From assembly GCF_054482525.1 (NCBI RefSeq), contig NZ_CM137006.1: a stretch of DNA of 64,000 nucleotides; one strand, 5' to 3'. Position numbers and translations under genes: made by a program. Positions within the stretch are counted from its first letter, which is position 1, and every line of letters starts with the position of its first letter. Below, one piece after another: positions 8,142 to 8,613 of the stretch. The notes beneath the pieces were generated by a model. The model had not been told where the DNA came from. It ran no database searches and saw nothing but the letters and a program-made list of their open reading frames with translations.

Positions 8142-8224
8142 TGCATCTCCAGAAATCATGAAGGAAACGTCGTTCATATCGGTGGTGTTAATTACAGATA
8201 TCACGCCCTTTAATTTGGAAATAA

Positions 8225-8365
8225 AACTTTAATCACCAATATTGAAAATGTCACACGCAGATAAATCCAACTTTCAATATTGTTAAGTCCCTCACCAATA
8301 TTGAAAACATGGCGTAGCAAAAAGAAATTTTCAATATTGCTTTATGGATCACCAATATTGAAAGT
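8225..8365. promoter_or_regulatory. divergent caiT / fixA control region with five copies of a CAATATTG core in alternating orientation
   Basis: CAATATTG core at 8237, 8275, 8296, 8332 and 8353, embedded in TCACCAATATTGAAA / TTTCAATATTG units, within the 409-bp gap between divergent fixA and caiT. Consistent with known CaiF/CRP-controlled cai-fix promoters. Confidence 0.5.
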
Positions 8366-8613
8366 CAGATGCTATTTTTTTACTCACAATCAAACTCATC
8401 ACATTGATAAACAATGAATATTTACACAAAGACGCCCTGTTTTTACCCGATAAAAAACTGTGACTAACATCACAGAACGCAGCCAATTGAATACCCATTA
8501 TGAGTTAGCCATTAACGCGTCCACGAGGTTAATAATAATTATATTAAATGTTAACAAAAATAAAACAAACGGGAACGCAAAATAAATATTCGTTTTCACA
8601 GTGGAATTAACTC

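Follow-up and report, generated by a model that had tools for sequence, protein, structure and literature searches.

What does the regulator CaiF read between the divergent cai and fix operons of Escherichia coli, and are the repeated sequences found there all sites of one kind? The caiT-fixA intergenic region was analyzed in a window of 64,000 nt of E. coli DNA, on which all positions are numbered. The region spans 8142–8613 (472 bp), is AT-rich with 33% GC content, and is 100% identical to that of strain 118UI. It is present in 5391 of 5426 complete genomes. For comparison, caiT loci were fetched from about 80 species (580 kb). The genes that bear on the question are as follows.

7371–8141, minus strand, fixA, the first gene of fixABCX
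8614–10128, plus strand, caiT, the first gene of caiTABCDE
17310–17702, minus strand, caiF, the cognate regulator (located by tblastn; intact, 131 aa)

As fixA is read from the minus strand and caiT from the plus strand, the original prediction of a divergent fixA / caiT control region was correct, and the interval assigned to it (8205–8613) takes in most of the intergenic region. The true start of fixA is the ATG at 8141 and not the GTG at 8204. A 277-aa fixA reading frame was called because this GTG is in frame with fixA; the frame is lost in Yokenella. The CaiF protein encoded in the window is 100% identical to K-12 CaiF and scores 28.5 bits against the Pfam family CaiF_GrlA (cut-off 25). 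An IS3-family insertion of ~1.5 kb that is not in K-12 separates the 3′ end of caiE from that of caiF (15768–17259). Its open reading frames are at 15859–16581 (rve, HTH_21) and 16686–17216 (HTH_28, HTH_Tnp_1), and caiF is undamaged.

Repeat cores and the published CaiF operators

An exact search of the window placed the 8-bp core CAATATTG, a perfect palindrome, at 8237, 8275, 8296, 8332, and 8353, the five positions originally predicted. The whole window holds 10 copies against 1.55 expected (0 of 100 shuffles gave 10), and five of the 10 cluster in 124 bp. Dinucleotide-preserving shuffles of the 472-bp intergenic region alone (n = 20,000) gave a mean of 0.03 copies and a maximum of two, placing five copies far beyond chance. 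The low GC content and the reported repression of carnitine metabolism by H-NS could point to a chance product of AT-rich DNA, or to generic DNA for H-NS or another nucleoid protein that involves no specific regulator. However, the shuffles never exceeded two cores, the motif is conserved in about 20 genera and restricted in the fetched loci to the caiT-fixA intergenic region, and the matching consensus comes from published CaiF footprints, as summarized in PMC12083890 and PMC3680233. This explanation is refuted, with a negligible probability.

The five cores were named units A to E in order of position. The extended unit TCACCAATATTGAAA occurs three times, at 8233, 8292, and 8349 (spacings of 59 and 57 bp), and the inverse 11-mer TTTCAATATTG twice, at 8272 and 8329 (57 bp apart). 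On the plus strand the orientation of units A to E is > < > < >, and core-to-core intervals alternate between 21 and 36–38 bp. Both the alternating extended orientation and the recurrence at 57–59 bp, or about 5.5 helical turns, had been predicted, and the measured spacing is 57–59 bp (5.4–5.6 turns). One further exact 11-mer at 53332 was dismissed as chance because it lies inside a 428-aa reading frame and has no partner. [quoted passage not shown] An origin by tandem duplication in E. coli was rejected on these grounds, in contrast to Proteus (below).

The CaiF operator is given as TTTCAATATTG-N13-CAATATTGAAA, with two sites named F1 and F2, in PMC12083890 and PMC3680233. Both papers summarize the CaiF footprints by Buchet et al. 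(1999), which defined the consensus. In the window this composite is matched perfectly at exactly two places.

8272–8306, F1 (units B and C), exact consensus match, at -53 to -87 of fix and -236 to -202 of cai
8329–8363, F2 (units D and E), exact consensus match, at -110 to -144 of fix and -179 to -145 of cai

Each is a 35-bp composite in which two inverted 11-bp repeats flank a gap fixed at 13 bp, and both lie between the cai and fix start sites, upstream of both. In 54 of 56 pairs across genera, the start of a '<' unit and that of the next '>' unit are 24 bp apart, and the distance between pairs drifts over 29–37 bp in the same genera. By this comparison the N13 pairing is the constrained one. 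The current model places one CaiF on each 11-bp half-site.

These measurements bear on a literal reading of the original prediction, in which the five 8-bp cores are equivalent and independent sites for a CaiF dimer on alternating faces of the helix. A perfect palindrome that occurs five times with a regular 21/36–38 bp alternation is what such sites would look like. However, the flanks are asymmetric and fall into two classes, with TCAC 85–100% conserved beside '>' units only and AAA confined to one side of the core. Spacing within pairs is invariant at 24 bp, in contrast to the other interval, which drifts, and the published operator is a 35-bp composite with one protomer on each half. Equivalent sites are therefore very improbable, and the five copies are non-equivalent: two inverted pairs with a rigid 13-bp gap and one unpaired copy. 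The predicted sites for a dimeric regulator are borne out, with the inverted pair as the functional unit. The original prediction did not single out the fifth copy, which has no partner and is embedded in the fix core promoter. The predicted alternation of faces applies to the two pairs, since F1 and F2 are 57 bp or 5.4 turns apart and so on roughly opposite faces, but not to the cores inside one pair, which are 21 bp or 2.0 turns apart and share a face.

Table S4 of PMC3105977 (RegulonDB-derived) lists three CRP activator sites, one for cai (-41.5) and two for fix (-69.5 and -126.5). They were located in the window together with a -10-like element for cai.

8281–8296 (center 8288.5), minus strand, CRP site at -69.5 of fix, TGTTAAGTCCCTCACC, 1 mismatch to the K-12 core GGTGAGGAACTTAACA
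8338–8353 (center 8345.5), minus strand, CRP site at -126.5 of fix, TGCTTTATGGATCACC, 1 mismatch to the K-12 core GGTGATCCATAAAACA
8459–8474 (center 8466.5), plus strand, CRP site at -41.5 of cai, TGTGACTAACATCACA, K-12 core TGTGATACCAATCACA
8496–8501, plus strand, cai -10-like CATTAT (start 8508), derived from the CRP position at -41.5

The two fix positions independently give the same fix start, 8219. The cai start at 8508 was derived from the CRP position at -41.5, and the two starts are 289 bp apart. The fix CRP cores are the inner 16-mers of F1 and F2 and are concentric with these operators; with CRP nested in each operator, it sits between two CaiF half-sites. Beside units C and E, the TCAC belongs to a CRP site, of which it forms the right half. 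At cai, the half-sites TGTGA-N6-TCACA are perfect, differ from K-12 in the N6 alone, and are conserved across genera, and the block TGAATACCCATTATGAGTTA at the cai -10 (8496–8508) is conserved in all aligned genera. Since the array is upstream of both starts, it is untranscribed from these two promoters and acts as DNA. A role at the RNA level was rejected because of this placement; a terminator-like match at 8475..8458 is the CRP palindrome.

In an alignment with K-12, all five units are base-for-base identical and all differences fall outside the 11-mers. Units B to E and the three CRP cores are the same as in the K-12 cai-fix region of Buchet et al. (1998, 1999), as summarized in PMC12083890, PMC3680233, and PMC3105977. 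Between F2 and the cai CRP site, the spacer sequence differs. The published F1, F2, and CRP positions coincide with the repeats; footprints lying elsewhere and leaving the repeats unprotected would have counted against a CaiF/CRP reading. The original prediction that this is most likely the known CaiF/CRP architecture is right, since F1 and F2 are exact matches and the CRP positions at -69.5 and -126.5 fall inside them. It is virtually certain that F1 and F2 are the published CaiF operators with their documented CRP sites. The observation is real and already known, namely the CaiF/CRP control region of cai-fix that was characterized in the late 1990s. The array as a whole, unit A included, probably consists of CaiF recognition boxes in the control region that the divergently transcribed caiTABCDE and fixABCX operons share. 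The K-12 descriptions in these papers count two CaiF sites, and a fifth, unpaired box in the spacer of the fix promoter goes unmentioned in the papers searched.

The unpaired box in the fix core promoter

The promoter scan of the fix strand returned a sole sigma-70-like match, which has unit A as its spacer.

8249–8254, minus strand, fix -35 hexamer GTGACA (5/6), from the promoter scan, at -30 to -35
8233–8248, plus strand, unit A, unpaired CaiF-type box TCACCAATATTGAAAA, at -14 to -29 of fix
8226–8231, minus strand, fix -10 hexamer TAAAGT, from the promoter scan, at -7 to -12 (start 8219)

Taken as 8233–8247 (-14 to -28), unit A fills the 17-bp spacer between GTGACA and TAAAGT. At the N13 distance, where an inverted partner would lie, 8213–8223 reads ATTTGGAAATA with 4/11 matches (6/11 when shifted by 1), and none of the aligned genomes has a '<' unit beyond unit A in the direction of fix. 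A hidden partner half-site, with 4–6 of 11 matches and no conservation, was rejected. Judged by its sequence, unit A is a CaiF-type box and not an F-type composite. The possibility that CRP alone explains the TCAC was also considered. It holds in F1 and F2 (6–8 of 10 core matches) and fails at unit A, where TCAC is invariant and the would-be CRP left half has 2/5 matches in 33 of 35 genomes. Without a CRP left half, CRP does not account for the TCAC there. A matching box in the cai promoter spacer was looked for as well. The window has GCCAATTGAATA at -25 to -17 of cai, which is a coincidence, since its CCAAT is retained neither in K-12 nor in other genera.

The summaries in PMC12083890 and PMC3680233 name only F1 and F2 as CaiF sites, and the searchable literature is silent on a box in the fix spacer. 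The fix promoter serves as the CaiF-activated output in biosensors, and fix is described as CaiF-activated (PMC3680233). We consider it reasonably probable that CaiF binds this box. Strong protection of unit A in the footprints might have earned it the name of a third site, which counts against binding. The unpaired fifth copy in the fix core promoter, the most widely conserved of the five, may be a modest extension beyond the published summaries.

Conservation and copy number of the array

Unit A is the best-conserved element across 35 species-level genomes. Read in the fix sense, its 14-mer TTCAATATTGGTGA averages 1.92 bits per position, and its flanks average 0.40 bits (25 bp upstream) and 0.71 bits (downstream). 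All 103 occurrences of the 14-mer in the 580 kb of fetched loci (103/103) are in caiT-fixA intergenic regions. Unit A lies 94–96 bp from the fixA ATG in most genera, with intergenic lengths of 324–600 bp. Copy number varies by genus.

1 unit: Edwardsiella, Hafnia, Serratia, Leminorella, Limnobaculum
3 units: Yokenella, Pluralibacter, Trabulsiella
5 units: Escherichia, Citrobacter, Salmonella, Phytobacter
7 units: Proteus

Where a genus has a single copy, the sequence downstream of that copy is the one found at unit A rather than at F1 or F2. Because this copy is the homolog of unit A, unit A looks like the oldest and most indispensable unit. A caiF gene is reported in Edwardsiella and in Proteus. 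The fix -35 hexamer is kept solely in the Escherichia/Citrobacter/Salmonella clade; elsewhere no -35-like hexamer adjoins the box, an arrangement typical of activator-dependent promoters.

Several local features of the fix side were recorded. One is a T(T/A)TTAT hexamer that averages 1.69 bits per position, at a distance of exactly 6 nt downstream of unit A. It reads TTTTAT in the window (8221–8226) and TATTAT in Edwardsiella, Hafnia, and Serratia. Relative to the documented start of fix in E. coli, TTTTAT spans -2 to -7 and is not the -10 used there. Since the conserved hexamer is not the documented E. coli -10, promoter geometry may differ between clades, which suggests either a clade-specific 5-bp promoter shift or two overlapping promoters. 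A further box conserved across genera is found in the fix leader at ~8187–8204 (about +15 to +32), with some resemblance to ArcA-type direct repeats; in the fix sense it is GTGATATCTGTAATTAA in E. coli and TGTTAnTnnTATATTnCATTG in other genera.

Outside these genera, caiT loci from Campylobacter, Shewanella, Ferrimonas, Desulfovibrio, and Malaciobacter (L057–L082) have no CaiF-type box within 900 bp upstream of caiT. Their caiT homologs are 67–74% identical, and these loci presumably use a different regulator. Entomohabitans teleogrylli (L038) is the sole sampled genus without a fix-proximal core. There, ~130–160 bp upstream of fixA, the box core CAATATTG is replaced (TTCAGCGACGTCGGGTGA) and the flanks GGTGA and TTTTTATTT are kept. 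Proteus mirabilis has seven units with an exact 59-bp period (L030, 2492–2624; also L028–L035 and L046), and Tandem Repeats Finder reports a 59-bp repeat of 2.3 copies with 78% matches. Three CaiF-type composites and an unpaired box are present, in an apparently recent tandem expansion.

Within E. coli, 5388 genomes carry the 145-bp array at 95% identity or more, and it is covered to at least 80% in 5360, which sets an upper bound of 28 of 5388 genomes for carriers of a truncated array. Enteropathogenic E. coli (EPEC) E2348/69 (NC_011601) has a clean 59-bp deletion that removed F1 and the CRP site at -69.5 and left the units > < >. It is a recombination between the identical 16-mers TCACCAATATTGAAAA of units A and C, and it shows how the 1/3/5/7 series arises. 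The deletion was seen at two loci, L084 (E2348/69; 6865–7277) and L083 (2410–2822), with an intergenic region of 413 bp. CFT073 retains the full array. In E. coli SFE8 (L086, 1740–2748), IS26 and resistance-region genes (bleO, a Tn3 remnant) replace the fix side of ~8365, and the whole CaiF array and the fix operon side are gone.

The segment from F2 to the cai CRP site (window ~8390–8486) is ~60% identical to K-12 over roughly 95 bp, with flanks of ~100%. Every sampled Escherichia lineage has its own version. The allele of the window is a minority one, at least 99% identical in 547 genomes, and 4726 genomes fall in the 90–95% band. With the CRP half-sites and the -10 block conserved, this segment has the character of a rapidly evolving spacer. 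It overlaps the area for which PMC3680233 cites an FNR site, at -90.5 of cai.

These patterns were weighed against an explanation in which unit A is not a CaiF site and is conserved as promoter DNA, or is a by-product of growth and shrinkage of the array. In the by-product version, unequal recombination of 15–16 bp direct repeats moves 57–59 bp modules and always leaves an unpaired end copy. E2348/69 documents exactly this kind of event, in which units A and C recombined with a loss of 59 bp, and Proteus carries a true 59-bp tandem repeat (2.3 copies, 78% identity). The summaries in PMC12083890 and PMC3680233 list F1 and F2 alone, and Entomohabitans lacks the unit A core; both speak for a box that CaiF does not read. 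However, single-copy genera have no partner for gene conversion and yet keep the 14-mer perfect, and in distant genera the lone copy is the homolog of unit A and looks ancestral rather than left over. As to promoter DNA, spacers are normally unconstrained in sequence; here the spacer averages 1.92 bits per position and the -35 is unconserved outside one clade. We regard a unit A that is not a CaiF site as rather unlikely.

In another alternative, CaiF binds unit A with a negative effect: occupancy of the spacer, for example by apo-CaiF or at high CaiF, would limit or time fix, and F1 and F2 with CRP would activate. In E. coli the box is flanked by a good -35 (GTGACA, 5/6) and a usable -10 set at the optimal distance of 17 bp, a classical repressor position, and the family member GrlA is reported to repress flhDC too. 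Against this, no -35-like hexamer adjoins the box outside the Escherichia/Citrobacter/Salmonella clade, lone-unit genera have no detectable upstream operator to supply activation, and fix is described as CaiF-activated (PMC3680233). A negative role is quite improbable.

Mode of action and implications

A more far-reaching reading, somewhat less likely than not, is that unit A is the ancestral and primary CaiF site, where one protomer would activate from inside the core promoter in a mode shared with the virulence regulator GrlA, its homolog. F1 and F2 would be later, CRP-containing add-ons, present in 0, 1, 2, or 3 copies per genus and gained or lost by recombination between boxes as in EPEC E2348/69. 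In the mechanism that we favor, a single CaiF protomer would bind unit A when effector is present and would activate fix either by contacting RNA polymerase or by reshaping the spacer, for which GrlA is the precedent. F1 and F2 with CRP would act upstream as cooperative, enhancer-like modules of variable copy number that also serve the distant cai promoter. That unit A activates fix from the spacer is close to an even call and falls slightly short of one.

GrlA belongs to the same family (Pfam CaiF_GrlA) and is the sole relative of CaiF that is characterized and the sole one in the PDB. CaiF and GrlA share 28% identity over 61 residues in the HTH region. GrlA is reported to activate LEE1 P1 (ler) in enterohemorrhagic and enteropathogenic E. 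coli by binding the spacer between -35 and -10. The LEE1 P1 promoter upstream of ler was checked in sequence and is TTGACA-18-TACACA. Its target lies between the -35 and the -10, and unit A has the same motif position at fix, where binding is predicted. The motif between -35 and -10 that is expected of a spacer-acting activator is thus present as unit A, in position only. The over-long spacer of 18–19 bp that is expected of spacer-acting activators (GrlA at LEE1 P1, MerR type) is absent at fix: the LEE1 P1 spacer of 18 bp is suboptimal, whereas the fix spacer of 17 bp is optimal. A similarity between the two spacers themselves (TTTTCAATATTGGTGAT at fix and TTTAATGATAATGTATTT at LEE1 P1) was rejected, as it amounts to AT-richness and is otherwise unconvincing.

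Promoters in which a specific regulator and CRP are interdigitated and both needed include MelR-CRP at melAB, AraC I1-I2 at araBAD, and CytR-CRP. In such composite promoters, the contact with RNA polymerase is made from the half-site nearest the promoter, which lies within or beside its core. The cai-fix region differs from them in that its proximal box is in the spacer and not over the -35. It differs from CytR-CRP in particular in that CRP sits inside the gap of the CaiF inverted repeat, whereas CytR sits between two CRP dimers. Buchet et al. are said to have found in 1998 that a 50-bp cis element overlapping the fix start is necessary for cai transcription. Such an element would contain unit A, and unit A might be the cis element that the distant cai promoter needs.

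Little is changed by the finding itself, because the region was characterized in the late 1990s. L-carnitine biosensors with CaiF and the fix promoter are being engineered (PMC12083890), and the identity of the core-promoter box would guide promoter minimization. EPEC E2348/69, with its natural loss of F1, is a ready-made test strain. One altered core for unit A, offered as an idea, would change CAATATTG to CGGTACCG and leave GTGACA, TAAAGT, and the 17-bp spacing unchanged. If CaiF does act at unit A, the consequences would be modest: the picture of two CaiF sites becomes one of two operators and a promoter-embedded box, and the divergent control region would tune its strength through gain and loss of 57–59 bp CaiF-CRP modules. 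The small CaiF/GrlA family would then gain a common mode of action, inside the promoter spacer.
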